Origin: an uncultured Planctomycetales bacterium
GTDB taxonomy: Bacteria; Omnitrophota; Gorgyraeia; Gygaellales; Profunditerraquicolaceae
DNA length: 64,000 nt
Direction of reading: 5' to 3'
NCBI GenBank assembly: GCA_964545575.1
Contig: CAZJFL010000003.1
Coordinates: 55,000 to 118,999, forward strand
In this document: positions 1,884 to 19,963 of the stretch, one piece after another
How positions within the stretch are numbered: position 1 is the stretch's first letter
Layout of the letters: each line of letters begins with the position of its first letter
Notes under the pieces: generated by a model
Told to the model about the DNA's origin: nothing
Databases searched by the model: none
Seen by the model: only the letters and a program-made list of their open reading frames with translations
Program-made: the position numbers and the translations under genes

Positions 1884-1887
1884 CTCT

Positions 1888-3279: not shown

Positions 3280-3323
3280 TCTTAAAAACCCGCGCCTTTA
3301 GAGCTTATCTATGTATAGCGAGA

Positions 3324-4457: not shown

Positions 4458-5271
4458 GGACAGGAACCTCCTTGTTGAAATCTGAAGCGATTCTTTCGAT
4501 CAATCCCCCGTCAACCTCCTTTACCTCCTGGCCAAAACCGATCAAAAGGCTCATATCGCAAATATTATTTATCTTCCTCGGCAGGCCCTGGGCGTGGTCA
4601 TAAATGGCCTGCATAGCCTCTGCGGTAAATATCTCGCTCTTAGCACCTGCTACGCTAAGGCGGTGTTTGATATACTCCTCAGTCTCTTTTCTATCAAGGG
4701 CTGCCAAATGATATTTTATGCCTAACCTCTGCTCTAACTGCGGTATTGCCTTGACCTTGCCCAATAGTTCAGGTTGGCCTATCAATACCAGCGTAATCAG
4801 AAATTTATTATTCAGCTGAAAGTTAAGTATCAGCCTCAGCTCTTCAAAGGTTTCCTTGTTCTTGATAATCTGCGCCTCATCAATTAAAATCACGGTCTTT
4901 TTCTGGTCATTGTGATTTTTATAAATGATATCCTGCAGCATATGCAGCAGTTGCGGCTTTGAGCCTTGGATATGTTCGTTTTTCAACTGATAGATTATCT
5001 CCTGTATAAACTGGATAGGGGTAAGCTGCGGGTGGACGATAAGCGCGACCTCATAGATCTTGTTTTTTATAAGTTCCTCTATGATAATCCTGCTTAATAC
5101 GGTTTTACCCGAACCGTATTCTCCGGAGAGCATCGCAGCCCCCTTCTCCTCTTTTATGGCATAGAGCATCCTGGTAAGGGCTTCTTCATGCTTCTTGGAA
5201 TAATACATAAAACGCGGGTCAGGCGTGTTTTCAAAGGGTTTCTCGGCCAGGCCCCAGTATTTTTCATACAT
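4441..5271 (-). CDS. ExeA/GspA-like AAA ATPase (PEP-CTERM locus secretion-ATPase type)
   Basis: 276 aa with Walker A GEYGSGKT and Walker B VILIDEAQ. The architecture is that of the AAA ATPases that accompany Wzc/Wza in exosortase-type EPS loci. Confidence 0.65.
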   Translation of the reverse strand: MYEKYWGLAEKPFENTPDPRFMYYSKKHEEALTRMLYAIKEEKGAAMLSGEYGSGKTVLSRIIIEELIKNKIYEVALIVHPQLTPIQFIQEIIYQLKNEHIQGSKPQLLHMLQDIIYKNHNDQKKTVILIDEAQIIKNKETFEELRLILNFQLNNKFLITLVLIGQPELLGKVKAIPQLEQRLGIKYHLAALDRKETEEYIKHRLSVAGAKSEIFTAEAMQAIYDHAQGLPRKINNICDMSLLIGFGQEVKEVDGGLIERIASDFNKEVPVHAKDV

Positions 5272-7219
5272 TTTTTCCGCCCTCCTCTGTCTTTTTTTCC
5301 GAAGGATCCTTGCCGTAATACTTTTTGCTGTAATAATAGTAATAGGCGCTCATGCCAATCTCGGGGGTAACGTTATTTAAGATGATGCCGGCAAGCGATT
5401 TTTTGCCCCTGACGCTCTCTATCTGTATCTTTGACCTGCGCAGCGCCAAACGTGAGGTAGAACCTGCCCGGTAGACTAACAAGACGCCGTCTACTTTAGG
5501 CAATAGAATAGAAGGTTCGCTTACTGCCAATACAGGAGAGGTGTCCATGAGCACCACATCGTATCTGTTTCTAAAATACTGCAGAGTCTCATCGAGTTTA
5601 GAGGAATTAAACAGGGCTATGGTATTGGGGAAAGTTGAGCCTGCAGTGACTACATTGAGATTATTCAACCAGGGTTTCTCGATTATCCTATCGATAGAGG
5701 TAGAGCCCAACATTATATCTGTAGCGGTTTTTATGCTGGCCTCGATGCTTATTTTGCCCGTCAGAATATCGGTCAGGCCATTCTCCTTCTCTTTCAGGCC
5801 GAAGCTCTTGTGTATATGGGCCCTGCGGGTATCGGCATCGACCACCAGGACCTTATAACCCATCTGCGCCATAATCACACCGAGGCTGGAGACAATGACG
5901 GTTTTGCCCTCCTCCGGCTTGGAGCTGGTGATAAGAATTATATTATTCTTTATCTTTCCGTTTTTACCAAAAATCACCTGCAGGTTTACGCCTAAAAGGC
6001 GAAAGGCTTCAAGAAACAAAGAGGTACGGTCGGACTTTTCCAGATCAAGGATATACGTAGGCCTTAAGTCTAGAGCCATGTTTTCTTTTTTGAAAAGAGT
6101 CCAGTGCTTCTTTTTGCCACTCCTCTTCTCCTCCTCCTCATAATACTCTGTGCAGTAAGGAATAATTCCCACCACGCCTACTTTTACGAAAGTTTCAATA
6201 TCATCCACCCTGCCGATGGAAGTATCCAAATTCTCGGATACCAATGCCGTAGCAACGCCCAGAACTAAACCCAAGACTAGCCCTATTAAGTAATTCTTTT
6301 TCTTATCGGGCAAATACGGGGTTTTAGGCATTATAGCCGGGTTGATGATGACAATATTATCCAGTTTCTCCGCTTCTCTGATCTGGGCGGTCTGGAGCTG
6401 TTGTTTTAAGGCATTGTACAGGGTCTCGTTAATCTTGGTATCCCGCTGCAGGATACCATATTCGAATTCCTCTTTGGGCAATGAGTTAAGTTTCTGCTTT
6501 AATATGGATCTTTCCTCTTCCATGTTGACTAAAAGAGGGTATTTGGGCGTAAATCTGGTTGAGAAATCCGTTATCTTGTCATCCAAATCCCGAATCTGCT
6601 GCATAATGCTCGCTGCTACACCTACCGCACCCTGGGTGGTAAGAACACGCAGCCTCTCTTCCTGTTCCTTTAATTTTTCCGAAACATTGGCTAGCGTAGT
6701 CTCGATAAAAATCCTTACATTACGCGTGCGCTCATTCTTCTGCTCCATGTTTATCTCTTTAAATGCCTGGGCCACGCCGTTGGCGAAATCCGTTGCTTTG
6801 GCGGCGTCAGTAAAATAAGTGTAAAGCCGTATCATGCTGCTTTTTTCTATTTCGACCGCCGAAACCTTGCTGGCCAAATCACTGACTATCCGCTCCGCCT
6901 CTCTTTTGGCAACGCCATCTTTTACCCATCCTAATTCTCTGGCGGCTCTTTCTATGACCGGGCCGGTAACCACCTGTCTTATGTAATCGGAAAGCTCATA
7001 AGGCTGCATGTACGAAGAGCGGCTCGGAAATATCACATCGGAAGGGAGCGAGGTAGACTCTATCTTTAAAAGGACCGTTGCCCGATAAATTGGCACCTGA
7101 AAGTAAGTATAAAAAAAAGCACTGAAAAAAACTACCAGGAAGGCAAGAAGGATTTCCCATTTTCTCTTTAAGAATATTGTCGAGTAATCCCTCAGGTTTA
7201 GTTCGTAAAATTTCTCCAT
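5264..7219 (-). CDS. wzc: Polysaccharide co-polymerase / tyrosine autokinase (Wzc/GumC-like, fused chain-length determinant plus BY-kinase)
   Basis: 651 aa. N-terminal TM, a long coiled-coil periplasmic region, a second TM, then a P-loop ATPase (SSKPEEGKTVIVSSLG, VLMDTSP). The C-terminal Tyr-rich tail SAYYYYYSKKYYGK is typical of BY-kinases. Confidence 0.8.
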   Translation of the reverse strand: MEKFYELNLRDYSTIFLKRKWEILLAFLVVFFSAFFYTYFQVPIYRATVLLKIESTSLPSDVIFPSRSSYMQPYELSDYIRQVVTGPVIERAARELGWVKDGVAKREAERIVSDLASKVSAVEIEKSSMIRLYTYFTDAAKATDFANGVAQAFKEINMEQKNERTRNVRIFIETTLANVSEKLKEQEERLRVLTTQGAVGVAASIMQQIRDLDDKITDFSTRFTPKYPLLVNMEEERSILKQKLNSLPKEEFEYGILQRDTKINETLYNALKQQLQTAQIREAEKLDNIVIINPAIMPKTPYLPDKKKNYLIGLVLGLVLGVATALVSENLDTSIGRVDDIETFVKVGVVGIIPYCTEYYEEEEKRSGKKKHWTLFKKENMALDLRPTYILDLEKSDRTSLFLEAFRLLGVNLQVIFGKNGKIKNNIILITSSKPEEGKTVIVSSLGVIMAQMGYKVLVVDADTRRAHIHKSFGLKEKENGLTDILTGKISIEASIKTATDIMLGSTSIDRIIEKPWLNNLNVVTAGSTFPNTIALFNSSKLDETLQYFRNRYDVVLMDTSPVLAVSEPSILLPKVDGVLLVYRAGSTSRLALRRSKIQIESVRGKKSLAGIILNNVTPEIGMSAYYYYYSKKYYGKDPSEKKTEEGGKNV

Positions 7220-7238
7220 AGTAATATCAAACCTTTAC

Positions 7239-8009
7239 CTATTGCCAACCTTTGTCAACATGCCCGCCAATTTCTCTGACTGCCCTTCTCAGATCAATCG
7301 CTGTCATCGCAGCATTGATAGTAGGCATCATGTTGTCTAAGAACTGGTTAAAATCAGCGATAAAGGCCTTAGGCACGAATATCAGATCATTTGGCTGCAA
7401 TATAATATCTTGCCTAGTCGTGCCTTTTGTAAGCACCTGCAGCATATTTATCCTGGTGACCTGCGGCTTATCGGTTAAGTTCCCGCGCACCAGCAGAACG
7501 CAATCCCTGCGGGACTTAACGGTGAAGTCCCCGGCTAATGCTATTGCATCGATTAAAGTCGCCCTGCCCTTGTAAGAGTATATTCCGGCGTAGCCCACTT
7601 CGCCTAAGACAATTACCTGATTGCCGGCAAACTTTGTCATCATCACCGAAACCTGCGGGTTCTTCACGTACTCGGAGATCTTTTCCCTAAATGTATCCTC
7701 GAGCTGGCCTACGCTTAAACCGGCAACTTTAATCCTGCCCACCAGAGGATAAGATATAAAACCGTCGGGCCCTACCACGATATGCTTGCTAAGGTCGGGG
7801 TTCTGCCAGATAAAAATTTCCATGGTATCTTCCGGCGCAATAAAATATTCAACCATGGGAAACTCTCCGGGCGTAGCTTCTTTTTCCGATGCCAGCGTAC
7901 CGCTCCTTACCCTTAAAAATTCCTGCCCCTGGGCAAAAGATTCTTGAACTCCGTAATATATTAGGAATAAAGAAAATATAACCCAAAGGATAAAAAAATT
8001 CTTTTTCAT
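7239..8009 (-). CDS. wza: Wza/GumB-like periplasmic polysaccharide export protein
   Basis: 256 aa with a signal peptide. The polysaccharide-export (Poly_export plus SLBB) pattern is present: PGDTMEIFIWQNPDLS, DGFISYPLVGRIKVAGLSVGQLE. Confidence 0.7.
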   Translation of the reverse strand: MKKNFFILWVIFSLFLIYYGVQESFAQGQEFLRVRSGTLASEKEATPGEFPMVEYFIAPEDTMEIFIWQNPDLSKHIVVGPDGFISYPLVGRIKVAGLSVGQLEDTFREKISEYVKNPQVSVMMTKFAGNQVIVLGEVGYAGIYSYKGRATLIDAIALAGDFTVKSRRDCVLLVRGNLTDKPQVTRINMLQVLTKGTTRQDIILQPNDLIFVPKAFIADFNQFLDNMMPTINAAMTAIDLRRAVREIGGHVDKGWQ

Positions 8010-8083
8010 AAAAATATAGGGCTCCTTTGCACTAAACTCCTATTCTATATTTTATCTTATACCGGTAAAAAATCAATCCTTTT

Positions 8084-9691
8084 TTAAGCGGGTTTTGGCA
8101 ATACTAATTTTGCTATCCCTTTAAAAATTCTCAAGATATAACTTCTCTGCCCCATTGCCTGCCGCGGGGGAAAAACCACCTTTTTTAAAATAATCAGGTA
8201 ATCCTTTAAGCAACGCGCCTCTGTTATTTCAAAAAAAATGTAGGCTAAAAACTTATCCAGGAAAGCCCTGCGCAGCCCTTCCTTCAAGATAACATTTTTA
8301 TTGGCAAAAGCCCGGATAAAAATGCGCTTAGGCGAAGAGAGGCCTAACCAAGCCAATAGTTCTCCAGGAAACCGGGGAACAAAAAAATCCTGATTCAGCC
8401 TGAGCGCTGCATATAGCGAGCCGCTCAGCCGCCATTTTTTTGCTTTATCCGCTAAACGCTGCCAGTTAATTTCCGGGGCATATTTTTGGAGCAATCGGTT
8501 GATATCAGCTACGGCTCTTAAGGTCCGGAAGGAATTGCTGTTGACCAGATGCGCCGAAAGGTAAAGCAGGAGCTCTTCCGGCTTAAAATCGTAATAACTT
8601 GCCCCCTCCCGCTCCACCGGCTCTGTGCCCTCCCATAATCCCTCGATGCGCTCGCGGCTGCGCACCATCATTGTTATATCCCAGTGTAGATCCACTTTTT
8701 TTTCTTTGGATTTAGAAAACTCATACTGCCATTGCCACTTTTCCACAAGTTCGGCCCTGGAGAACCGATAGCCAACCCCCTCTAATGCATTTTTTGTAAT
8801 TTCTCTATCCTCTTCTTTTATCAAAAAATCAAAATCGCAGCTTATGCCCCTTCCTGCAATATTTCCATAAAGCCTCTTAGCCAAAATTGTTCCCTTTAAG
8901 GGTAAAACCAGAATACCCTTTTTTGTAAACACCCCTAGAAGTTCCTCCAGCTGCTTATGCTGGTAATTGACTTCTGAGATTATGAAAAGGTAACTGAATT
9001 TTAATCTATCAAAGACAAATTGCGGGATATCTCGGCGGGGGGCAATTTCTCTTAAGGCATCATACACCAAAATAGTAACTCCTTTTTTCATCGCCAATTC
9101 TAAAAATCTCTGCCAGTAAAGGCCTTCCTTTATTAAACTTGCGGCTTCCTTTTTTAATTTTTCATCTAAATTTTTCTGGCAACAGATTAAGAGAAGCTCT
9201 TCGGTGTTGTAGAGCAAGGGGTTTGCCTTTTTTAATCTATTTTTTAGCTTAAATAGAAACAGCCTCCATTCGATGGCTAAACTTATGTACTTTGATAAAA
9301 AGCTAAGCGCCTTTGGATACCTCAATGAGAGTTGCGCAATAAACCTGTTAAAACGCCTCCATAAAGGCAGATTTAAATCAAAGCTGATTTTTCCCCTCCG
9401 GATTTCGGTTACTCTGCCGACAATTGATTCCGAATTTACTGGATTTTCCAGTCCCCCTTTATGGGCATCTCCTTTTGTAAAATAGGCTGTTTTTCCATCC
9501 TGCTCAATAATCTTTACCACCCGATGGGTGAGAAAAAGCTTTTCTTTATTTATCGGCACAACTTTTATGCAGTCGCCATTTTTTATAAAAGGGCACATGC
9601 TTAAACCTTTGGCGTTGAAATATAGAGGCTTGGCCTCCTGCGTTAAGCTTGAGCCTAAAGCCTTTGCTTTTTGTTCTTCTTTTACGATCAT
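8084..9691 (-). CDS. Fusion protein: N-terminal S24/S26-type (LexA/signal-peptidase-like) serine peptidase domain plus C-terminal uncharacterised nucleotidyltransferase-family domain
   Basis: The N-terminal ~130 aa carry KGLSMCPFIKNGDCIKV (the GxSMxP nucleophile motif) followed by downstream Lys residues. The C-terminal ~400 aa look like the 'nucleotidyltransferase family protein' (NTP_transf_5-like) found with PqqD/HprK-like genes. The likely start is the internal Met at 9691, which avoids overlap with the ABC gene. Confidence 0.5.
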   Translation of the reverse strand: MIVKEEQKAKALGSSLTQEAKPLYFNAKGLSMCPFIKNGDCIKVVPINKEKLFLTHRVVKIIEQDGKTAYFTKGDAHKGGLENPVNSESIVGRVTEIRRGKISFDLNLPLWRRFNRFIAQLSLRYPKALSFLSKYISLAIEWRLFLFKLKNRLKKANPLLYNTEELLLICCQKNLDEKLKKEAASLIKEGLYWQRFLELAMKKGVTILVYDALREIAPRRDIPQFVFDRLKFSYLFIISEVNYQHKQLEELLGVFTKKGILVLPLKGTILAKRLYGNIAGRGISCDFDFLIKEEDREITKNALEGVGYRFSRAELVEKWQWQYEFSKSKEKKVDLHWDITMMVRSRERIEGLWEGTEPVEREGASYYDFKPEELLLYLSAHLVNSNSFRTLRAVADINRLLQKYAPEINWQRLADKAKKWRLSGSLYAALRLNQDFFVPRFPGELLAWLGLSSPKRIFIRAFANKNVILKEGLRRAFLDKFLAYIFFEITEARCLKDYLIILKKVVFPPRQAMGQRSYILRIFKGIAKLVLPKPA

Positions 9692-9695
9692 TTTT

Positions 9696-11441
9696 TTAAA
9701 ATATAATTCCTTCTTCCGAAGCTGCCTCAATCTGGCTGGCAAATAATTCCCTATACCCCGCATTCCTTAAGAGTTCCTCGTGGCTGCCGATATAAATATC
9801 GGCGGGGCCTTCTAAAAAATAGGCCAGCTCCATCTTTTTAACCGTAGATAGCCTATGCGAAACAACGATTATGGTAGAATCTCTGAATTCATTTTTGATA
9901 TTATCGATGATTTTTTCCTCGGTTTCAGAATCTAACGAAGACATCGCTTCATCTAAAATCAGGATACTCGGCCTTTTTATTACTGTTCTGGCAATGGCAA
10001 CCCTTTGCTTCTGGCCCTCGGAAAGTTTACAGGCCATCTCTCCAATTAGCGAATCGTAGCCTTGGGGCAGCTTAAAAATAAATTTATCGATTTGCGCGAT
10101 CTTCGCTGCCTTAACCATTTCTTCATAACTGGCATCATCTTTTCCGTAGAGGATATTATTGGCAAGCGTATCATTCCAGAGGAGCGCCTCCTGAAGGCAA
10201 ATACCAATTTGCTCCTTCAAGGATTTTAATTTAACATCTTTTATATTCTGGCCGTCGATTAAAATCGAGCCTTTTTCCAGATTATAAAGCCTTAAGATCA
10301 AAGAAAGCAAAGTTGTCTTTCCGCATCCTGATTTTCCTACCAGGGCAATTTTTGAGCCGGGTTTGATTGTAAAATTTACCCCTTTTAAGACAAATCCATC
10401 TTTTTGGTATGTAAAATGAACGTCATGAAATTCTATTTTTCCCTTTAGAATCTTTGCCCCGGCGGCACCCTCTTTATCCCTTATCTCTGTTTTGATATCG
10501 AGAATTTCTGCCAGGCGCTGGTAGGATACTGAATTTACAAAAATATTTTCATAAAATCCTGCCATTGACTTAAACGCCCCCAAGGCTTGAGTTAAATAAA
10601 TCATTAACGCAGTCAGGCTTCCTAAGGTCAGATCCCCCCTGATAACTTGATAACCGCCGTATAAAAGAATTATCCCGCTTATCAGCTTGTTAAGAATAGA
10701 GCTGGAAAAACTGCTCATGCTGCGTATGCGGGCGTTTTTGAACTCAAAATCCGTCCTTCTTAAAAGAGATTCCTCAAATCTTTTTATCTCATACTCTTCT
10801 TTGCCCAAAGCCTTTACCAGATGCATATGGCTGAAAACTTCCTGAAGATTTCTATAAATATCCTGGGACTTATCAATGACCCTATAGGCTACCTGTTTTA
10901 GCCATTTTCCAAAAAAATAGGGATGGATAAAACTTAGGGGGGCCAAAATAAAGGTAAAAAAAGCAAGTTTCCAGTTAAGATAAAAAACGATGCATGAAAT
11001 AACCGCCAGGCGCAAAATTACTAAAGGTACCTGGGGGAGGCTGTTAGAGATAAAGCCGCTTACGGATGAAACATCGTTGCTTATACGATAAATATGCTCG
11101 CCTGTAGATTTATCCTTAAAGAAACTTAAAGAGAGGCTCTGCAGGTGCCTGAATAAATCTTTGGTTATATCAAAGCGTACCTGGGAATTTACTTTCGAGG
11201 AAAGGTAACTGATTAAGGAATTGATTAAACCATTTAGGATGAATATGCTTGCGCCAATAACAGCTAAAATCAAAAATAATTTTAGATCCTTATTCGCATA
11301 TGCCCTATCAATGACCAGCTTTGTAAGATAGGGGTTGATTAAACTTAAAGGCAAGCTAACCAGCCCTAAAAGAATTACCAGAGTCTCAATTTTCCAGTAT
11401 CTATAGAGATATTTATTAAAGCGTTTCCAATTTACATTCAT
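9696..11441 (-). CDS. ABC exporter, fused permease/ATPase (MsbA/LagD-like, no C39 peptidase domain)
   Basis: 581 aa. Six TM helices, then Walker A GKSGCGKTT, signature LSEGQKQRVAIAR and Walker B ILILDEA. Confidence 0.85.
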   Translation of the reverse strand: MNVNWKRFNKYLYRYWKIETLVILLGLVSLPLSLINPYLTKLVIDRAYANKDLKLFLILAVIGASIFILNGLINSLISYLSSKVNSQVRFDITKDLFRHLQSLSLSFFKDKSTGEHIYRISNDVSSVSGFISNSLPQVPLVILRLAVISCIVFYLNWKLAFFTFILAPLSFIHPYFFGKWLKQVAYRVIDKSQDIYRNLQEVFSHMHLVKALGKEEYEIKRFEESLLRRTDFEFKNARIRSMSSFSSSILNKLISGIILLYGGYQVIRGDLTLGSLTALMIYLTQALGAFKSMAGFYENIFVNSVSYQRLAEILDIKTEIRDKEGAAGAKILKGKIEFHDVHFTYQKDGFVLKGVNFTIKPGSKIALVGKSGCGKTTLLSLILRLYNLEKGSILIDGQNIKDVKLKSLKEQIGICLQEALLWNDTLANNILYGKDDASYEEMVKAAKIAQIDKFIFKLPQGYDSLIGEMACKLSEGQKQRVAIARTVIKRPSILILDEAMSSLDSETEEKIIDNIKNEFRDSTIIVVSHRLSTVKKMELAYFLEGPADIYIGSHEELLRNAGYRELFASQIEAASEEGIIF

Positions 11442-11500
11442 GGTTAAATTGTCAAATCGCTATATTGTTATACTGCTAGGTAATTTGACAGTTTAGCGGT

Positions 11501-12424
11501 TTATTTTGTCTTGCGCACAAACCCGATCACTCTTTTATTATTTACAAACCCCAAACGATAACAAGGCACGCTGCTAAGCAAATCCTGGCAAAAGGAAACG
11601 ATATTCTCTAAACAATTTTTGTCCCAGAAGGTGGGGAATAAACAGGGATACAGTAGGTTAAGGGCTGACTTTTTAGAAATTATTTTTATTTTATTCTCCG
11701 GGCTATGATAGATAAAAAATATCTTCTCCAGAGGCGCGGATTCTATCTTTGAGCTTAAATAATCGCTGAATGCGCCATGCCAGGGAGAGCTGTAGATAAA
11801 GAATCTTTTTTTAATTTTACGGATGATTATACGATCGTCATTTAAAACCATGGCTTTTGAATGATTATACCAGAGCTTGGCCAGAGTAGTTTTGCCGGCG
11901 TGAGATTTACCGGCAAAAAGTAAACCCTTGCCTTGCAAATCTTTTATCCCCACAGAATGGGTAAAAATTCCTTGCCTTCTTAAGGCAAGATGATTTATCA
12001 GCAGGACCTGTAAAAAGTCATAGATAATATCGGTGAAATTCCAGGCTCTTGCCTTGTTTTTTTTAGGCAAAAGATAAGCATTTACCTTATCAAAGGCCGG
12101 ATTCACCCGCATAAGTTGTTTCTTGGCTTCTAAAGGGCACTTATAGATATAAAAATCATTCTTTTTAAGCAGGCGCCAATTCTCATTTTTGCTTATATAG
12201 TGAGTAGTGATAAAGATATCTTGCGCCTGCCTGATTTCGGGCAATTTGTCTACGATGTTAACCTGAATAGTAATATGCGGTTTTTGCCTTCCCTTATAAA
12301 AAAAATTTTGAAAGCGCTCAAACCTTTCCAGCCTCTTCTTTTCTTTAGTCCGCTGTTCAAAGGGAAAAGCGCTTTGCATCTGAATGACTATATCGGCAAT
12401 CTTTAATTTTACCCTGTACTCCAT
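11501..12424 (-). CDS. HprK-related P-loop kinase (ScmC / HprK-related-kinase type)
   Basis: 307 aa. GKGLLFAGKSHAGKTTLA and LNDDRIII resemble the HPr kinase C-terminal P-loop domain (G-x-S-G-x-GKS ... ADDR). It sits in a PqqD/radical SAM context. Confidence 0.55.
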   Translation of the reverse strand: MEYRVKLKIADIVIQMQSAFPFEQRTKEKKRLERFERFQNFFYKGRQKPHITIQVNIVDKLPEIRQAQDIFITTHYISKNENWRLLKKNDFYIYKCPLEAKKQLMRVNPAFDKVNAYLLPKKNKARAWNFTDIIYDFLQVLLINHLALRRQGIFTHSVGIKDLQGKGLLFAGKSHAGKTTLAKLWYNHSKAMVLNDDRIIIRKIKKRFFIYSSPWHGAFSDYLSSKIESAPLEKIFFIYHSPENKIKIISKKSALNLLYPCLFPTFWDKNCLENIVSFCQDLLSSVPCYRLGFVNNKRVIGFVRKTK

Positions 12425-12425
12425 A

Positions 12426-13484
12426 TTAACAGTTTAAACCTTGCTTTATTTTTTTGGCAAAAATCCGGCTCTCGGGCTCGCAGGAGGTGAAGGTTTTATT
12501 GTAAAGCCATGCCCTCCCCGGGCACCATTTGCAGAAAGGCGCTAAATTGCATCTGTCGCATTTATAATTTTTATCTTGCTTAATTGAGGAAACCAGTCCT
12601 TTTAGCCTCTGCCAGGCATCTTTTAAAGAGGTCTTTAATATTTTGTATTTAGGAAAATCAATCATCAAGCACATTTTCAGTTCTCCAAAAGGATTAATTG
12701 CTGCCTGGCTTACTCCTACTGCGCATTTAAATAAATTATTGCTATCGGGTATTTGGTTTGTAGCCACTAAATCACACTCTTTAAAATTATCTTTTCTTAT
12801 GGCCTGCAACCTGTAGCCTGTAGCCTGTAGCTTATTTTTTAAACTTCCCCTATACCTAAATGGCTCTTTTGAACCATCTAGGCGTGGCGAAAGCCTGGTA
12901 TCCAGCCGATGTAGGGCGCCTAAGGATTCGGCAAAATCCTGGATATCCTCTATTTGGGCTTCGTTTTCTTTTAAAACACAGGTCTTAAAACCTAAATTGA
13001 CTTTATTTTTATGTAAAAGCCCGATTGCTTTAAAAACTTTTTTATATGAACCGGGAGAACAGGTTATCTTCTCAAAAGCGGCTTCAGTCATTGCCGGAAG
13101 GGTAATATCTACCTTGTTTGGTTTAAGCTGGGCTAATTCCCGGGCAATTATTTCATCGATTAAAGAGCCATTGCTATAAATGATGATTTCAACCCCTTTT
13201 TTCTTAGCATAGCAAAGGATCTGTATTATATCCTTTCTCATAAACGGTTCGCCGCCTGTAAAGCCCAAATAGAAGCAACCTATATCAGCCAGTTGATCAA
13301 GAATAGAAAATACCTCTTTAGTCTTAAGTTCTCTTTTTTCTCTAAAACTTTCCGGGACATAACAGTGCCTGCATTTAAAATTACATCTATAGGTTAACTC
13401 GAACATCACCCTTAAGAGAGAACCTTTTTCCTTTGCGCTCTTATGTATCTGTTGCCAGAACTTATTGTAGGCCCTAGTCTGCAT
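12426..13484 (-). CDS. Radical SAM/SPASM-domain peptide-modifying enzyme
   Basis: 352 aa. CX3CX2C (YRCNFKCRHCY) near the N-terminus; C-terminal SPASM Cys cluster (CDRCNLAPFCKWCPGRAW). Confidence 0.8.
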   Translation of the reverse strand: MQTRAYNKFWQQIHKSAKEKGSLLRVMFELTYRCNFKCRHCYVPESFREKRELKTKEVFSILDQLADIGCFYLGFTGGEPFMRKDIIQILCYAKKKGVEIIIYSNGSLIDEIIARELAQLKPNKVDITLPAMTEAAFEKITCSPGSYKKVFKAIGLLHKNKVNLGFKTCVLKENEAQIEDIQDFAESLGALHRLDTRLSPRLDGSKEPFRYRGSLKNKLQATGYRLQAIRKDNFKECDLVATNQIPDSNNLFKCAVGVSQAAINPFGELKMCLMIDFPKYKILKTSLKDAWQRLKGLVSSIKQDKNYKCDRCNLAPFCKWCPGRAWLYNKTFTSCEPESRIFAKKIKQGLNC

Positions 13485-13485
13485 C

Positions 13486-14586
13486 TTAACCGCCTAAACG
13501 CTTTCTCTCTGCTAAGGTGGCTTTAGCCAAATCGCAATAATAAGTTACCGGGGATTCCTCATCCCCGGTTTCTAAGAAAGCCCTGGCTGGGCAGTTATAG
13601 CAGAGCGGCCTTAAAGAACAGAGCCGGCATTTAGATTCGGTTTTAAATTTCTCCTTTAAGATTCCGGGAAAGACGCGGTAAAAGCCTTCTTTAAAGGGAG
13701 TTTCTTTTAAATCCACGCTGAATTTTTCAGAAAACATGCAAAACTTCAATTTTCCATAGGGATTGATAAAGAAATACTTCTTCCAGATATTGCAACGGTA
13801 AAGAAAATCTTTATTTCTGCTTAAATCCGGAAAATCGCTCTTTAAACGCCGCTGGTATTCTTCCCAGATTTGGGGGTCTTGTCTTCTTGCCTCTTTTAGC
13901 TCGGAAAAATTAAGTCTAAAATTTGTGGGGGCTATGTCTCCATTCAGCCGGGGGTAAATCATCGGGTCATATTTGAAATGGTATCTATTTTTGGAAGGCC
14001 CCCCCCAAAGTTGTTCGGTCCATTGTTTTATGCTTCCCAGCTCGTCTTTATTCTGCTTAAGGCAGTTTGTCTTCACTATCAAGGGTATTTTACTTTCTGC
14101 CAAAAATTTAATATTCTTTATTGCCTTTGAAAAAGAACCCCCTACCCGGCTTATCTTTTCATAGGTATCTTTGGTTATCCCGTTTAAAGTGACCTCGATG
14201 GACAGGGGCGGAGATTTTATCAAATAATCAAAAATCTCTTTGCTGAATAGCTGCGCATTAGTAAAAATGGTTACAAGAAAACCTTTTTCTTTGGCAAAGG
14301 AATAAAGCTCTAGAAAATCATCCCTGATTAAGGGATCCCCTCCGGTAAAGGTAACCCATAGACAACCCTCTTTTTTAATCTCGTTTAAAATTTTCTTCCA
14401 ATCTTGAGTGGTTAATTCCTGGTTTGAGGTTTTGCGGTATTTTTGCGGTATTGCGCTATTTTTACAGTAGCAATGGATACAGTTAAGGCTGCAATTGTAG
14501 GTAAGCTCGATTGTGCCGCTTAAGGGGAATTGCCCTTTTTTAATCCTAAGCCGCTGATAAAAAGGGCCTAATCTTCGCTCTTGCAT
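13486..14586 (-). CDS. Radical SAM/SPASM-domain peptide-modifying enzyme (second paralog)
   Basis: 366 aa. CX3CX2C (YNCSLNCIHCY); C-terminal SPASM (CRLCSLRPLCYNCPARAF). Confidence 0.8.
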   Translation of the reverse strand: MQERRLGPFYQRLRIKKGQFPLSGTIELTYNCSLNCIHCYCKNSAIPQKYRKTSNQELTTQDWKKILNEIKKEGCLWVTFTGGDPLIRDDFLELYSFAKEKGFLVTIFTNAQLFSKEIFDYLIKSPPLSIEVTLNGITKDTYEKISRVGGSFSKAIKNIKFLAESKIPLIVKTNCLKQNKDELGSIKQWTEQLWGGPSKNRYHFKYDPMIYPRLNGDIAPTNFRLNFSELKEARRQDPQIWEEYQRRLKSDFPDLSRNKDFLYRCNIWKKYFFINPYGKLKFCMFSEKFSVDLKETPFKEGFYRVFPGILKEKFKTESKCRLCSLRPLCYNCPARAFLETGDEESPVTYYCDLAKATLAERKRLGG

Positions 14587-14589
14587 AAA

Positions 14590-14850
14590 TTAAGATTGCC
14601 CTTCGGCCGAGTAAGGAGTCTGTCCTGCTGGATAGATACCAGGAGGAAACTCGCAAACCCCCTCACCCAGCATCTCTTTTGTAGCGACCTCAGTCCAGCA
14701 AATATTATCTGGGGGTGGAGGGGTATTAGCTAGATGTGCTGTTGTCCATGCCACACCAAACTCAAAACAGTTACAAGACAGCACTGCCTGCTCGGGGTTT
14801 AATTTTATCCGGCTAATCACCGGCCTAAACTTTGGTTTTCTCGTCTTCAT
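14590..14850 (-). CDS. Small Cys/Trp/Pro-containing protein; candidate precursor peptide of the radical SAM cassette
   Basis: 86 aa: MKTRKPKFRPVISRIKLNPEQAVLSCNCFEFGVAWTTAHLANTPPPPDNICWTEVATKEMLGEGVCEFPPGIYPAGQTPYSAEGQS. Its start overlaps the PqqD stop (ATGA) and is preceded by GGAGGTAAA. It has four Cys and lies immediately before the two rSAM/SPASM genes. Confidence 0.4.
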   Translation of the reverse strand: MKTRKPKFRPVISRIKLNPEQAVLSCNCFEFGVAWTTAHLANTPPPPDNICWTEVATKEMLGEGVCEFPPGIYPAGQTPYSAEGQS

Positions 14851-15137
14851 TTTACCTCCTCTATTGCCTTTATCTTCCTTAAATCTTCCAGCAGCACCTG
14901 CAATTTTTTGTCTGTTTCTTCTTCTGTGGTATCAAACTTTTTTAAAATCGCTTTTCTAATATCTTTTAGGGTTCTTTTTCCATCAATTAAATCCCAGATC
15001 TTTAAGGCAGCCTTATTTAGGGTATAAATATAATTTGCTTCCTCGGATGTCCTATAAATGGGTATCAGCATCGCTTGATCATCTATCTGGCGGCTGACTA
15101 TATCCGGGCTCTTCTTTAAAACTGCATCCTTTTTCAT
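14847..15137 (-). CDS. PqqD-family RiPP recognition element (RRE) / peptide chaperone
   Basis: 96 aa. Fits the PqqD family pattern (DQAMLIP...YTLNKAALKIWDLIDGKRTLKDI). SD AAGGAGG lies before the ATG. It is the first gene of the operon. Confidence 0.75.
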   Translation of the reverse strand: MKKDAVLKKSPDIVSRQIDDQAMLIPIYRTSEEANYIYTLNKAALKIWDLIDGKRTLKDIRKAILKKFDTTEEETDKKLQVLLEDLRKIKAIEEVK

Positions 15138-15358
15138 ACTTTGCCTCCTTGTAAATTCAATCGCAACAGTGTGCCCTGGCTATTGCTAGATGAGCGTCTA
15201 ACTATGCCTACAGGGGCAAGGCTATTATTAGGGAAAGCCTACTCTCATATTATCACAAGAGGAAATCAGAGACAACAGGTTTTCTTAAGACGGGGAATTT
15301 GTCTAGGTTTTATGTGGGTTTTGCGTTGGTTTGGGAATTGTCTGGGTTTTGGGTTTTG

Positions 15359-18300
15359 TTAACGCAGGTACCAGTGATCCTCATCGCCCACTAAAAGCTT
15401 ATATCCGGGAAATATTATTTTTGAATAGTCAGAACCGAGATCCATTCTGCTGTTAGCATCAAGGAAGCTAAAACCGACTCCGCTATAAACGTCGATCCTA
15501 GTGTTGTCAAAGATATCTGCGTCTAAGAAGGATATCAGCCCGCCGGCATGAAGATAGAGCCGGTCAATGGTAGTAATACCTACCGCCTCTAAGCTAATGC
15601 TACCAGCAGCATAAAGGGAAATCCAATCATGCGGACCAAAGGAAAAACCCCCTGTCAGAGTAATACTCCCTCCAGTAGAAGTAATAGCCAGTCCTTTGTT
15701 ACCTATAAAGTGGCTAAGGAAAGATGTATTGGCAGTAAGGCTATCTGCACTTTGGAGGTAGATGTAGGAAGAGGTAGCTGTGTTATTTAAAGTAAGGCTT
15801 CCTCCTCCGCTTTTATCATAATTCGCATAAAGATAGATCTTGTCGGCGGCTATACTTTGGTTTAAAGTAACGTCTCCGTAAGCAAGAATATAGATTGCTG
15901 TCAGCCCGGAGAGCTGCGAGTCAACAACAATGGTGCCAGCGGCAGCAGTAGAAGTAATGCCAAGCCCTCCGCTGTAATTGGATAAACGGGGAAGGAGTGC
16001 ACTTAAGGTAAATCCGGTCGGATTCGCACCTTGGAGGTAGATGTAGGGAGCGGTAACCATGATGGTCGGCGGTGTTATGAAAGTAAGGCTTCCAGAGCCC
16101 TTTTTATCATTATCCGCATAGAGATAGATCGCACCGTTTATTGTATCGTTTGTGCTAATAGTAGTCCTGTTTACAGTAAGAGTTCCGGCAGCAAAAAGGT
16201 AGACTCCATCATTTCGGGCAATGGGCGCAGATACCGTAATATCTCCGTTGGTAGAGCAAACACTTAAAACGCCGGTGTTGTTGATTAAAAAGCCAAGGAA
16301 AGCTGCATCGATGAACATAATTGCTGCCCCATCAGGCGCACTTTGGAGGTAGATCTTGGCAGCTTCTACATATTTATTATTTAAATTAAGGGCTCCCGAG
16401 CCATCTTTATCATTATCCGCAAGAAGATAGGCGCAGGGGGCTGTTATCGCTGTTGCCGACAGAGGATTTAAAGTAAGAATTCCAGCAGCATAAAGGTAGA
16501 TTCCCGTATTTCGGGAAATGGCCGTAGTTACCGTAATATCTCCCGTGGCAGCCACTTCTGCTTTAAGAGCGTTGATGCTTAAAACATCTGCGGCACCACC
16601 GGAATAGGCTAATTTGTTCAGGAAAGTCAAATCAATAGTAAAATTCTGCGCGCCTTGGAAGTAGATGTTGGCAGCATTGAAGGTGCCCAATGTATAAGAA
16701 ATCTGTCCCGATATAGCGCCAACACTATCCCCATACGCCGCATAGACGTAAATCTTGCCGCTCCCAGAGGTAACTGATAGGGCTACCGGACCACCTACCC
16801 CTACAGTAATATTTTCCGCACCATAAAGGTAGATTCCCTGAGTGCGGCTAATGTCAGTTGTTACCGTAATATTTCCGGCAGTAGAGGTGATGCTTAAGAG
16901 CTGGGTGTTACTGGTTAAAAAGCCGAGGAAACTTCCATCGATAGTAAAACTACCCGTACCTTGGAAGCCCGCACCTTGGAGGTAGGCGTAGGCAGCGTCA
17001 ATCTTTGTACCTACGCCCCCTATATAAAGTTGTCCTGCTTTATCTTTATCCTGATCCGCATAAAGGTAGACGTGGCCGCCGACTGCGTTGTCGCTGATTA
17101 TATCTGCATTTACAGTAATATCTCCAGTAGCATAAAGGTAGATATTATTTCGGCCACTAATGCGCGCACCTACAGCTACCGTAATATTTCCGTTGGTAGA
17201 GTAGAGACTTAAAACGCCGGTGTTGTTGATTAAAAAGCCAAGGAAACTTCCATCGATATTAAAAAGCTGCGCCTTTTTGAGATAGATGTTGGGAGAGTTG
17301 ATTAGTATGTTATTACTAAGGGTTCCTGTTTTATTTTGATCATAATCCGCATAAAGGTAGACCGCGCCGGTTGTTGCGGTAGAGGCGTTGGCCTGGGCCA
17401 CTGTAACATTATTATCAGCATAAACATAAATTTTACCTCCCGTTGCCGTAATAGTTCCACAGGTAATATTAAGTGAAGCATGAAGATTGACATCTTGGCC
17501 TCCGGTAATCACAGAAGACGCGCCGCCACCAATACAATAAATACTACCGCTTGCGGAAATATAAACTGAACCGGCGGCATTTAAATTATACGTTCCAGGC
17601 ACCCCCAGAATAACATTATGCCCAAAGATTTTTATATCGCCGGAAGTAGCAACGGTAATCGAGGTTCCGTTAGCCTGGGTAAAATCTCCGTCCCCGTTAT
17701 AATCTGAATCAGCCACAAAGATGAAATCAGTACCCGTGACAGTAATACTAGCATTCACATTTATATTGCGGGCGGCTTCTAAGGGACCAACGAGACCTAT
17801 CGGATTGCTAATAATGACGTCATAAAAGGGATGGCCACCAGGAGTGATGGTCGGGGTACTCCCGCCGTTAAAAGTGACAAGTGAGTTTCCAGGGTCAAAA
17901 GTAGCAGCTTCGCTTAAGGTAAAATTACCCCCCACGGATATGTTTGAGCTTTGGGCATTAAAAATAGCGCCGCTGTTTAAAATAAAACTACCACCCACGG
18001 CTAAAGTAAAAGATCCACAATTGACTTCTCCTGAATCTTGGCTATAAGGGCCGTTAATATTAAGGCCCCCCGCCAGGGTGATTGACCCTGAAAAACCACT
18101 TGTAATAATCAGGGAGTTAATCGTTAACCCTGGCATATTCATAATAGTATCGTCTGAGGTTGTATTAAAGATAATATCTTGGCCGTCAGGAGGTATCTGA
18201 GGATTCCAGTTAAGCGGATCTGACCAAAAAATGCCGTCGCCAGGCGGAAACCCCCCTGCCCCCACCCACTCCGGGTCTAAATGCCAGCCCACGATGCTGC

Positions 18301-19963
18301 CGTACTTTCCACCATGGACCACTTCAATAATCTCAGGGTTGAGGTTATGGCTATCCCGGACCAAGACCTCGTCAATATTATGGATATTGGAAGGTATGCT
18401 GATATACCAGGGTTTCCCGAGTTCGGAAGCATAAAGCTTGATTGTATCTGCGGGAGTGCCCTGGATAGTAGTTAAACCCTCAAAAGTATAGGTTTTTCCG
18501 GATTCAAAATAGATTTCCTTGCCCGGGATAGTGCAATTAAAGTTATAAAAGGTGATATTGCCGTATAAATAGGTAGGCTCCTGCCCTAAAAGAGTGACTT
18601 TATTCGCCTCTAAGGTAAGATTAGTATCTTTATTATAGATTATCGCGCCGAAGCCATCTGGCGGGCCGCGCAGCATAATACTGGTTCCGATTCCTAAACT
18701 ATCTAAGATATTAATATCTCCTTGAGTTCTGTTTATATAGATAAGCGCTGCATCTATCACTAAAGGCGCATCTATTGTTCCGAATTGCTTGGCAAATATT
18801 TTAACCTGATTGGCCTGAATAATTACCCCGGGAGCGGTGTTTATCGGAGGATCCCCTTCGTAAGTCACCGGGTCCTCGGGAAGGATGACTTCCACTTTCT
18901 CTGCATTAATGGTGATGAGCTTATCCGCCATGATCAAACCACCCTGTAAAAGGTTGACTGCCTGGATACTGATGAGATCATCAAAACCTTGGGAAGCTTG
19001 AGTGATTATATTGCCTTTATTAATGAAATCTGTACCTTGGGCGTTGACTTCTATCTTACCTGCTTCTAATCTGCCGCTATTAATTATGGGCGCACCCGCG
19101 GCTACCAGTTCAATTACGCCATTACGGTTAACCATATTATTTGCCTGAATTAAGCCCGTATTATTAATCGCATAATCAAAGACGCCATTTAAGACACTAG
19201 CCGTTAAAATAACTTTGCCGCCGTTGGCAGAGATTGTTCCTGAATTTTTAAGCGCAGAATCAAATCCGGAAATGGCTTCTTTTACCGGCCCGTCAACGAC
19301 TACCGAGATTGACCCTAAATTATCCAAAGCTAAGGTCATCTTCTCACCCGAAGCCAAAACCACCGTTCCTAAATCCGCCAGAATTAACCCTTGATTATCT
19401 ATTGCCCCGGATAAAAGGCAGATATATCCGCCCGGACTTCTGATTTGGCCCTGATTGACAATATAACCGTTTCCGGCACCCTTCTTGTAAAAATCATACT
19501 TACCATTTAAGAAATCATCATTAGAAATATCTAAGGTTGAAGCAAGTAATCCGGCAACATCTACCCTTGAATTTGGCCCGAATAAGATTCCGTTAGGATT
19601 AATAATAAAGATGCGTCCGGTAGCAGTTAAAATACCAAAGAGGCTGGAAGGATCAATACCCGTTACCCGGTTTAAGGCAATGCTTGAGGAAGAAGGCTGA
19701 ATAAAATGCACTGCTTCAGCTTGAGCAATAGAGAAACTGTTATAATTGACGATGAGTTTGTCTGAAGTGGTGCTGATAGTCAAGGTTTCTGCGCTTGTGC
19801 GGTCAAAAGTAGCCGAACCGCTGACTACGCTTTCGCCTTCAGGCAGACACCAAATAAATGAGGAACTGCCTAATACTATCAGGCTCGCCAAAATCAAAAT
19901 CAGAGAACCTTTAAAGAGGATTGTTTTTTTCATCTTCTTTTCCCTAATGGTAATGCCTATCAT
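15359..19963 (-). CDS. Large secreted exoprotein with filamentous-haemagglutinin-type TPS (two-partner secretion) N-terminal domain and beta-helical repeats
   Basis: 1534 aa with a signal peptide. The N-terminal domain has the haemagglutination-activity/TPS motifs (FIINPNGILFG, ALNRV). The body consists of about 7 repeats of ~95 aa (IDGSFLGFLxxNTxxLS..STxGNITV...GIYLYAAG) rich in G/N/T/S. Confidence 0.75.
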   Translation of the reverse strand: MIGITIREKKMKKTILFKGSLILILASLIVLGSSSFIWCLPEGESVVSGSATFDRTSAETLTISTTSDKLIVNYNSFSIAQAEAVHFIQPSSSSIALNRVTGIDPSSLFGILTATGRIFIINPNGILFGPNSRVDVAGLLASTLDISNDDFLNGKYDFYKKGAGNGYIVNQGQIRSPGGYICLLSGAIDNQGLILADLGTVVLASGEKMTLALDNLGSISVVVDGPVKEAISGFDSALKNSGTISANGGKVILTASVLNGVFDYAINNTGLIQANNMVNRNGVIELVAAGAPIINSGRLEAGKIEVNAQGTDFINKGNIITQASQGFDDLISIQAVNLLQGGLIMADKLITINAEKVEVILPEDPVTYEGDPPINTAPGVIIQANQVKIFAKQFGTIDAPLVIDAALIYINRTQGDINILDSLGIGTSIMLRGPPDGFGAIIYNKDTNLTLEANKVTLLGQEPTYLYGNITFYNFNCTIPGKEIYFESGKTYTFEGLTTIQGTPADTIKLYASELGKPWYISIPSNIHNIDEVLVRDSHNLNPEIIEVVHGGKYGSIVGWHLDPEWVGAGGFPPGDGIFWSDPLNWNPQIPPDGQDIIFNTTSDDTIMNMPGLTINSLIITSGFSGSITLAGGLNINGPYSQDSGEVNCGSFTLAVGGSFILNSGAIFNAQSSNISVGGNFTLSEAATFDPGNSLVTFNGGSTPTITPGGHPFYDVIISNPIGLVGPLEAARNINVNASITVTGTDFIFVADSDYNGDGDFTQANGTSITVATSGDIKIFGHNVILGVPGTYNLNAAGSVYISASGSIYCIGGGASSVITGGQDVNLHASLNITCGTITATGGKIYVYADNNVTVAQANASTATTGAVYLYADYDQNKTGTLSNNILINSPNIYLKKAQLFNIDGSFLGFLINNTGVLSLYSTNGNITVAVGARISGRNNIYLYATGDITVNADIISDNAVGGHVYLYADQDKDKAGQLYIGGVGTKIDAAYAYLQGAGFQGTGSFTIDGSFLGFLTSNTQLLSITSTAGNITVTTDISRTQGIYLYGAENITVGVGGPVALSVTSGSGKIYVYAAYGDSVGAISGQISYTLGTFNAANIYFQGAQNFTIDLTFLNKLAYSGGAADVLSINALKAEVAATGDITVTTAISRNTGIYLYAAGILTLNPLSATAITAPCAYLLADNDKDGSGALNLNNKYVEAAKIYLQSAPDGAAIMFIDAAFLGFLINNTGVLSVCSTNGDITVSAPIARNDGVYLFAAGTLTVNRTTISTNDTINGAIYLYADNDKKGSGSLTFITPPTIMVTAPYIYLQGANPTGFTLSALLPRLSNYSGGLGITSTAAAGTIVVDSQLSGLTAIYILAYGDVTLNQSIAADKIYLYANYDKSGGGSLTLNNTATSSYIYLQSADSLTANTSFLSHFIGNKGLAITSTGGSITLTGGFSFGPHDWISLYAAGSISLEAVGITTIDRLYLHAGGLISFLDADIFDNTRIDVYSGVGFSFLDANSRMDLGSDYSKIIFPGYKLLVGDEDHWYLR

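Follow-up and report, generated by a model that had tools for sequence, protein, structure and literature searches.

A candidate RiPP precursor with a conserved leader and a Ser/Thr end in a PqqD, radical SAM/SPASM and HprK-like kinase cassette of Omnitrophota and other uncultivated bacteria

The linear polyphosphorylated peptides (LPPs; Popov et al., Nat Commun 2026, PMC13381572) are the closest described system to the gene cassette discussed here, which lies in a 64,000-nucleotide stretch of contig CAZJFL010000003.1 from an uncultured Planctomycetales bacterium (Omnitrophota in the GTDB lineage). We refer to this whole stretch as the window, and the gene of interest in it is a small open reading frame (ORF) of 86 codons between a PqqD-family gene and two genes for radical S-adenosylmethionine (rSAM)/SPASM enzymes. 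LPP gene sets comprise a SpI-like peptidase, a recognition element for peptides made by ribosomes and modified after translation (RiPPs), an HprK-like kinase, an NTP transferase and an exporter resembling MsbA, and the LPP precursors, 35-200 aa long with a conserved N-terminus and a highly variable C-terminus, are encoded in polysaccharide loci (PMC13381572). The LPP leader consensus is YxxPxVLxHQxIxFETxxS, Ser3 of the core is phosphorylated, and cleavage after F-E-T needs the RiPP recognition element (RRE); LPPs have been reported to be linear, restricted to Bacillota and made without rSAM enzymes (PMC13381572). HprK homologues are also found with lasso peptides, where they phosphorylate the C-terminal Ser of the precursor with little regard for the remaining sequence, and PsmN then adds a hexose to the Ser phosphate (PMC6993621, PMC8498205).

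We consider, at a probability of roughly 0.8, that the 86-aa ORF is a genuine substrate peptide (RiPP precursor A) of its cassette. As is general for RiPP precursors, it is a small co-oriented ORF beside an RRE and maturases in an arrangement conserved elsewhere, and it has a conserved leader and a variable core. It is housed in a minus-strand operon (15137..8084) with the following genes:

14847..15137, minus strand: PqqD-family protein, a discrete RRE, 96 aa (PF05402, E = 4e-11, above the gathering score)
14590..14850, minus strand: candidate precursor peptide gene, 86 aa plus stop (ORF read from the sequence; homologue searches)
13486..14586, minus strand: rSAM/SPASM enzyme 1 (rSAM1), 366 aa (PF04055; 'position 1' orthologue group by BLAST)
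12426..13484, minus strand: rSAM/SPASM enzyme 2, 352 aa (PF04055; 'position 2' orthologue group by BLAST)
11501..12424, minus strand: HprK/PEPCK-fold P-loop kinase-like protein of the ScmC family, 307 aa
9696..11441, minus strand: MsbA-like ABC exporter without a peptidase domain, 581 aa (PF00664 and PF00005)
8084..9763, minus strand: SipW/archaeal-type signal-peptidase-like (S26) domain fused to NTP_transf_5, 559 aa (TIGR02228; PF14907)

The window cassette resembles the LPP gene sets in its precursor logic, in all five accessory genes and in its polysaccharide neighbourhood. The discrete RRE, HprK-like kinase, NTP transferase and MsbA-like exporter are all present, as is the S26 peptidase, which is recognized by a below-cut-off match to TIGR02228 and by conserved motifs. 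It differs in its leader, which reads KPKF[RK]PxITR[VI]KLNPEQAVLxCxC and is reminiscent of the LPP leader only in an aromatic-Pro-hydrophobic element, and in its two intact (ancestrally three) rSAM/SPASM enzymes and conserved Cys, which set it apart from the linear LPP products. An invariant C-terminal Ser/Thr and hosts that are mostly Omnitrophota are further differences.

With the paeninodin and pseudomycoidin clusters the cassette shares an HprK homologue together with an NTP-transferase, a Ser-ended precursor, a PqqD-like RRE and an ABC exporter, and some of those clusters have a fusion of nucleotidyltransferase and leader peptidase like the one in the window. However, rSAM/SPASM enzymes here take the place of the lasso cyclase and B2 peptidase, and Pfam and NCBIfam searches with the window operon proteins gave no match to an Asn-synthetase-like lasso cyclase or a B2 transglutaminase-type peptidase. 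The SynChlorMet cassette (SCM; TIGR04248-TIGR04251, PF27840), for which to our knowledge no precursor has been identified, likewise combines a PqqD homologue, an HprK-related protein and two PqqE-like rSAM/SPASM proteins, and homologues of the window kinase-like protein carry PF27840 (ScmC). All four window proteins nevertheless stay far below the SCM cut-offs (bits against cut-off: ScmD 34/100, ScmC 19/125, ScmE 74-79/400, ScmF 69-73/400), and the exporter, NTP_transf_5 and S26 peptidase are extra in the window; we regard the window cassette, on these scores, as a sister cassette and not as SCM equivalogs.

As in sactipeptide and ranthipeptide systems, the maturases are rSAM/SPASM proteins with auxiliary-cluster motifs and the core bears Cys, and the closest solved relative of rSAM1 is the sactisynthase SkfB (E = 2.8e-15). 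No known precursor or maturase family was matched, though (SCIFF, SkfB, AlbA, StsB, CefB and others), the core is much longer here, and a kinase, nucleotidyltransferase and S26 peptidase are foreign to those classes; filing the window peptide under either class would take knowledge of its crosslinks. Prochlorosins and precursors of the Nif11/NHLP type have a shared leader and hypervariable cores, with genes scattered away from their maturases. The family described here is similar in placing hypervariable cores behind one leader and in scattering its genes, as many precursor copies are orphans and the metagenome-assembled genome (MAG) STF1_137 holds 24 distinct precursors on a dozen contigs, all of them Ser-ended, but the leader, enzymes and phyla differ. 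We therefore rate it as a RiPP family that, judging from gene content, would join rSAM/SPASM chemistry to end decoration of the LPP/paeninodin type.

The precursor gene and its family

The ORF translates to MKTRKPKFRPVISRIKLNPEQAVLSCNCFEFGVAWTTAHLANTPPPPDNICWTEVATKEMLGEGVCEFPPGIYPAGQTPYSAEGQS (86 aa), with Cys at positions 26, 28, 51 and 66, Trp at positions 35 and 52, and both a PPPP and a PPGIYP stretch. Its ATG (14850..14848) shares the letters ATGA with the TGA of the upstream PqqD ORF, and the reverse complement of 14851..14859 is the Shine-Dalgarno-like GGAGGTAAA; direct reading confirmed both of these signals, from which the original prediction had argued that the ORF is translated. Downstream, 3 nt lie between the peptide stop codon and the start of the rSAM1 gene. 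The features within and just before the gene are:

14851..14859, minus strand: Shine-Dalgarno-like sequence before the precursor ATG, within the end of the PqqD gene (direct read)
14776..14850, minus strand: leader-like region, residues 1-25 (MKTRKPKFRPVISRIKLNPEQAVLS), with near-zero column entropy over 155 members
14593..14775, minus strand: core-like region, residues 26-86, which starts C-x-C-[YFW]-x-x-G, holds C51 and C66 and is otherwise hypervariable
14593..14595, minus strand: codon of the C-terminal Ser86, a candidate phosphorylation site (family-invariant Ser/Thr end)

Homologues are numerous. A word-indexed search returned 26 of 63-92 aa, and a profile search of 1.84 billion representatives returned 834 clusters at 50% identity with E <= 0.001 (633 at E <= 1e-10), the best 150 of these 834 being 63-119 aa long; the family as a whole spans lengths of 47 to about 120 aa. 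Scanning a single genome for each species with exact leader patterns found 72 loci, mostly in Candidatus Omnitrophota MAGs, with the other hosts being Elusimicrobia, Planctomycetales, Verrucomicrobiota, WOR-3, NPL-UPA2, Chloroflexota and a few more. Database entries for the homologues are 'hypothetical' or nameless, and screening of seven diverse members (the window peptide and six relatives) for known Pfam or NCBIfam domains gave no match at E <= 1. Literature searches on the KLNPEQAVL motif, SynChlorMet/HprK-related kinases, Omnitrophota RiPPs and HPr kinase with radical SAM and PqqD returned no paper on the family. In 90 distinct leader DNA segments, codon entropy over KLNPEQAVL was 0.13, 0.00 and 1.27 bits at positions 1, 2 and 3, respectively, of which only the third-position value is informative as the segments were motif-selected. 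Because these codons vary almost only at the third position, constraint acts at the protein level, and together with the homologues this indicates that the 86-codon gene is real, as the original prediction had held, and conserved far beyond chance.

A tblastn search with the peptide found no paralogue in the window; the best other match, at 57114..57308 (E = 0.025), falls within a gene for an apolipoprotein N-acyltransferase and was set aside as chance. Scanning 7000..15500 for promoters and terminators gave nothing above shuffled expectation.

When the 155 members were aligned on NPEQA, positions -16 to +14 formed a conserved block reading M-x-[RK]-K-P-K-F-[KR]-P-x-I-T-R-[VI]-K-L-N-P-E-Q-A-V-L-x-C-x-C-[YFW]-x-x-G, in which most columns have zero or near-zero entropy, and from +15 on (beyond residue 32) entropy was about 3.9 bits, which is close to random. 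This sharp step supports a division into leader and core. The basic N-terminal leader segment that had been proposed from the sequence is thus borne out in that the step exists and has to be redrawn in its extent, as the conserved block is longer than the basic 16 residues and continues to about residue 25-32, taking in C26 and C28. The four Cys, two Trp and Pro-rich stretches that had been singled out in the core are all present; of these, C51 is invariant in the 26 closest homologues and four Cys follow the leader block in 86 of the 155 members, while the Trp and Pro-rich stretches are kept only in the closest relative. We saw no link between the number of Cys and the number of rSAM genes, the window combining a four-Cys peptide with two such genes.

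The most striking constraint outside the block is at the other end of the peptide. The last residue is Ser in 151/155 members and Thr in 3/155, with 94/155 ending in 'SS', and all 105 distinct genome-locus peptides end in one of these two residues, 94 in Ser and 11 in Thr, against a combined Ser and Thr frequency of 0.21 in the variable part. Position +7 is S, A or T in 134/155. Neither this invariant end nor the downstream kinase, nucleotidyltransferase and peptidase genes that could use it figured in the original prediction. Two classes can be told apart. In class A, to which the window peptide belongs, C-x-C and an invariant F-x-P-x-[IV] go with a core-like part of about 55 aa; in class B, CC and [W/F/Y]-x-x-[P/M]-x-[I/L/M] go with one of about 30 aa. 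The exact form [Y/W]xxPx[L/V/I/F/A], which is the RRE-binding motif of lasso and LPP leaders (PMC13381572), occurs in 15 of 36 class B cases. From these alignments we recognize what appears to be a large undescribed family whose front end is invariant, whose middle changes fast and whose last residue is Ser or Thr.

At three of the related loci (which we label with L-numbers), three to five different genes for class B precursors, with a leader of the form ...KLNPEQAVLSCC and a short core, stand in tandem, and no cassette lies within 10 kb of them:

L055, 35..5190: class B tandem array
L070, 8224..12120: class B tandem array
L071, 8939..10210: class B tandem array

Locus L080 has the same PqqD-peptide-rSAM arrangement as the window, including the 4-nt overlap of PqqD and precursor, which is also found in L052. 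Identity between the window and L080, and the nonsynonymous over synonymous substitution rates (dN/dS, with the ratio in brackets), are as follows:

PqqD: 94.8% identity, 0.022 / 0.154 (0.14)
rSAM1, first 263 aa: 85.9% identity, 0.070 / 0.337 (0.21)
Peptide leader, residues 1-28: 96% identity, dN/dS uninformative with few changes
Peptide core: 55% identity, 0.306 / 0.245 (about 1.25)

The L080 core retains all four Cys and the terminal EGQS. The core ratio comes from one pair and 58 codons and is indicative only, and a core that appears to change several times faster than its enzymes fits the pattern of a hypervariable RiPP core. An AlphaFold2 model of the window peptide had a pLDDT of 51.5 and a pTM of 0.24, with residues 49-86 below 50, so the peptide is predicted to have no confident fold; this and the hypervariable core lent no support to the small scaffold protein that had been offered as an alternative to a precursor.

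Genes around the precursor were counted within 10 kb at 73 non-redundant loci:

rSAM: 49/73 loci
PqqD: 43/73 loci
ScmC-like kinase: 35/73 loci
ABC exporter: 31/73 loci
NTP_transf_5: 21/73 loci

The recurrent order is PqqD, precursor, rSAM, rSAM, ScmC, rSAM, ABC, NTP5, and this synteny is repeated in Omnitrophota, Elusimicrobia, Planctomycetales, Verrucomicrobiota and others. The gap from PqqD to precursor ranges from -17 to 274 nt (20 loci); adjacency of the two genes is general and the ATGA overlap is lineage-specific. Homologous small ORFs next to orthologous PqqD/rSAM cassettes were what the precursor reading predicted, and finding them supports it. The other outcome that would have counted against this reading, an ORF that turns out to be a domain protein of known function, was not seen either in the Pfam and NCBIfam screens.

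Accessory enzymes and the proposed pathway

The peptide would be co-translated with PqqD, which as a discrete RRE would bind the leader through its F-x-P-x-I...KLNPEQAVL segment. Apart from its Pfam match, the PqqD protein has weak NCBIfam matches (ScmD, PqqD and a lasso PqqD-type chaperone), all under curated cut-offs. It would then hand the peptide to the two rSAM/SPASM enzymes, which may introduce crosslinks or other radical modifications in the core, likeliest at the conserved Cys. Both rSAM proteins have CX3CX2C and complete SPASM Cys motifs; neither reached a curated NCBIfam equivalog, with all maturase matches far under their cut-offs. A thioether-type link is the default guess for the modification, and we give Cys-based crosslinks an even chance.

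The ScmC-type kinase is predicted to phosphorylate Ser; paeninodin and pseudomycoidin, taken as analogues, make the invariant terminal Ser86 the likeliest target. We favour the terminal Ser as it is the sole invariant hydroxyl residue outside the leader and as the HprK homologues of lasso clusters act on the C-terminal Ser of their precursors; on this analogy, phosphorylation of the terminal Ser could equally well prove right or wrong. The protein has 552 homologues, mostly 61-69% identical, which carry PF27840 and of which none is functionally named, and its kinase fold comes from structure prediction and a fold search. G172-K-S-x-x-G-K178 (the P-loop) and N195-D-D-R198 are invariant. The pseudomycoidin kinase PsmK loses activity when its predicted metal site is changed by D158A/D159A (PMC6993621, PMC8498205), and the invariant DD of the ScmC-like protein looks equivalent to this pair.

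The NTP_transf_5 part of the 559-aa protein (PF14907, E = 1.2e-48), with G-x-S-x-D-x-D at residue 306, may attach a sugar to the Ser phosphate. The fused S26-type domain (TIGR02228, E = 2.3e-7, under cut-off) would remove the leader, plausibly after V-L-S25, with the predicted cut falling between this Ser and C26. Type I signal peptidases have a -3/-1 residue preference, which suggests cleavage after V-L-[S/A/T]. G-x-S-M-x-P-F, H-R-[VL]-V and GD are shared between this N-terminal domain and 13 homologues, and these motifs correspond to the Ser and His boxes known from signal peptidases of the SipW/archaeal type. Elsewhere the domain is either fused to NTP_transf_5, a fusion that recurs in L010, L043, L049, L058 and L075, or a free protein of 138-216 aa. 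Searching PDB sequences with the kinase-like protein and with the S26-NTP5 protein returned nothing usable. The ABC exporter, which matches the MsbA model at E = 3.6e-104 (under its curated cut-off), would finally secrete the product. The first ATG of the 559-aa ORF (9763) gives a 68-nt overlap with the exporter gene, and an ATG at 9691, 5 nt past the exporter stop, is the more plausible start; the counterpart in L079 begins still later, at a Met that is Thr in the window.

Some cassettes are equipped differently. In L005 a weak transglutaminase-core protein (6751..7794) stands beside NTP_transf_5 and PqqD in place of the S26 domain, and because of this replacement the leader peptidase may differ among cassettes, that of L005 being lasso-B2-like. 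L052 (6148..9711) and L001 (503..2038) carry a protein with a peptide-arginase-like (FlmR/OhkR) N-terminal domain and tetratricopeptide repeats (TPR), and L052 also has a B12-binding rSAM protein resembling RiPP C-methyltransferases. The arginase-like/TPR and B12-rSAM proteins would be extra tailoring steps, and are missing from the window. In L001 (Omnitrophota) small selfish-element-like genes are found among the biosynthetic genes (2476..5439 and 10338..10703), including GIY-YIG, DUF5674, a 23S rRNA intervening-sequence protein, a reverse-transcriptase fragment and HepT, and a truncated 38-aa precursor pseudogene is located at 3590.

The window copy of the cassette is itself reduced. L079 is about 90% identical to it in DNA over 5.3 kb and has a 357-aa rSAM gene (2274..3330, roughly 1.06 kb) between ScmC and the exporter, as do most cassettes. 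In the window this site is a short spacer:

11442..11500, minus strand: spacer of 59 bases, site of the lost third rSAM/SPASM gene (L079 alignment breaks at 11483 and 11463)

No orthologue of this position-3 rSAM was found elsewhere in the window. The window peptidase domain is also 13 residues shorter than that of L079, which has IKIGDIIVVNKEK at the K75/L76 junction (9536..9541); the deletion is in frame and bordered by repeated NKEK, could reflect either genuine slippage or a fault of the assembly, and may impair the peptidase. With the third rSAM and 13 peptidase residues lost, the window pathway may yield one modification fewer or be partly disabled.

Weighing the substrate reading against its rivals

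Several observations weigh against our reading of the peptide as a substrate modified by its cassette. Every chemical step is inferred and held with less confidence than the substrate role itself, and because the rSAM proteins reach no curated equivalog their chemistry is not readable from homology. The residue targeted by the kinase is uncertain since the LPP kinase phosphorylates Ser3 of the core and not the C-terminus. The S26-like domain lies within 10 kb in 13/73 loci, and 49/155 members have three Cys only. The reduced cassette of the window might make a different product or none. Lastly, a 61-aa core that is rich in G/S/T/A and has a dN/dS of about 1 would also fit a spacer under relaxed constraint.

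That last point leads to the rival that survives best, in which the peptide is a scaffold whose N-terminus recruits the enzymes, whose middle is a spacer and whose terminal Ser/Thr is what the enzymes really act on, in the manner of pearlin-type scaffold-peptide pathways. The kinase, nucleotidyltransferase and rSAM enzymes would build a small molecule or phospho-sugar head group from this Ser/Thr, for subsequent release or transfer. Such a role would agree with an invariant last residue after some 50 almost random, G/S/T/A-rich residues, with a core dN/dS of about 1.2 and with the lack of a predicted fold. It does not account for the three or four Cys that recur in the supposed spacer or for the invariant C-x-C-[YFW]-x-x-G, and instead of an enzyme clipping off the C-terminal residue the cassette encodes a leader-type peptidase along with an exporter of its own, with no aminoacyl-tRNA-dependent ligase among its genes. 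We consider this scaffold role unlikely.

It is considerably less likely still that the peptide is a small structural or accessory protein, such as a four-Cys metal- or Fe-S-binding subunit or an rSAM chaperone, and not a substrate. At 86 aa it is long for a RiPP precursor, and its four Cys and translational coupling to PqqD would suit such a protein, but the low-confidence AlphaFold2 model, variable length and hypervariability beyond residue 32 do not, nor do the many three-Cys members and the 24 different copies in one MAG, with many copies distant from any cassette. A Sec-secreted matrix protein whose signal peptide the SipW-like peptidase would remove (as happens to TasA/TapA in Bacillus), with the rSAM genes as unrelated neighbours, would take its cue from the SipW/archaeal-type domain in the operon and the polysaccharide and adhesin neighbourhood. 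We find this very improbable, as the N-terminus has no hydrophobic core region (a signal-peptide reading of it was dropped for want of any hydrophobic segment), the position of the peptide co-varies with PqqD and rSAM genes across phyla, and the SpI-like peptidase of LPPs is RRE-dependent and cuts a leader, not a signal peptide (PMC13381572). That the spacer between PqqD and rSAM holds a chance ORF or a miscalled gene has nothing more than small size and missing annotation in its favour and is already refuted by the 834 homologous clusters, the third-position wobble and the Shine-Dalgarno and ATGA coupling that recur in relatives, leaving it a negligible prospect.

Genomic surroundings and significance

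Directly downstream of the operon on the same strand (711..8009) is a polysaccharide locus of the XrtA/PEP-CTERM type with genes for a Wza-like exporter, a Wzc-like autokinase, an XrtA-associated ATPase (E = 1.3e-64), an HD-GYP phosphodiesterase-like protein, a Wzy_C protein and a DegT aminotransferase. Directly upstream, also on the same strand (15359..19963), is a gene for a 1534-aa two-partner-secretion (TPS) exoprotein with an N-terminal TPS domain and long repetitive Gly/Ser/Thr-rich repeats, a filamentous-haemagglutinin-like adhesin. Polysaccharide genes are next to the cassette at other loci as well (Wza at 8 loci, Wzc at 5, the XrtA-associated ATPase type at 9 and HD-GYP at 8), and L005 is surrounded by glycosyltransferase, Wzy and WecG genes.

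That the cassette repeatedly adjoins polysaccharide genes of the Wza/Wzc/XrtA type suggests a function related to the cell surface or the matrix, and this recurrent siting in polysaccharide export loci, as for LPPs, bears on the purpose of such phosphorylated peptides. A bolder reading is that rSAM-modified peptides carrying a phospho-sugar on the C-terminal Ser/Thr are joined to, or prime, the neighbouring Wza/Wzc/Wzy (XrtA-type) polysaccharide and constitute a new RiPP class. We regard this as a long shot, though if true it would mean that Omnitrophota and other uncultivated bacteria bear on their surface a hypervariable ribosomal peptide conjugated to polysaccharide.

As a precursor, the peptide would be a candidate substrate for the widespread SynChlorMet-type rSAM/SPASM-PqqD-HprK cassette, and it would join two separately described lines, rSAM/SPASM crosslinking and the kinase/nucleotidyltransferase/SipW-peptidase machinery known from paeninodin-type lasso peptides and LPPs. 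We know of almost no natural-product chemistry in uncultivated phyla like Omnitrophota, and in such phyla the family would place up to 24 cores per genome behind a single leader.

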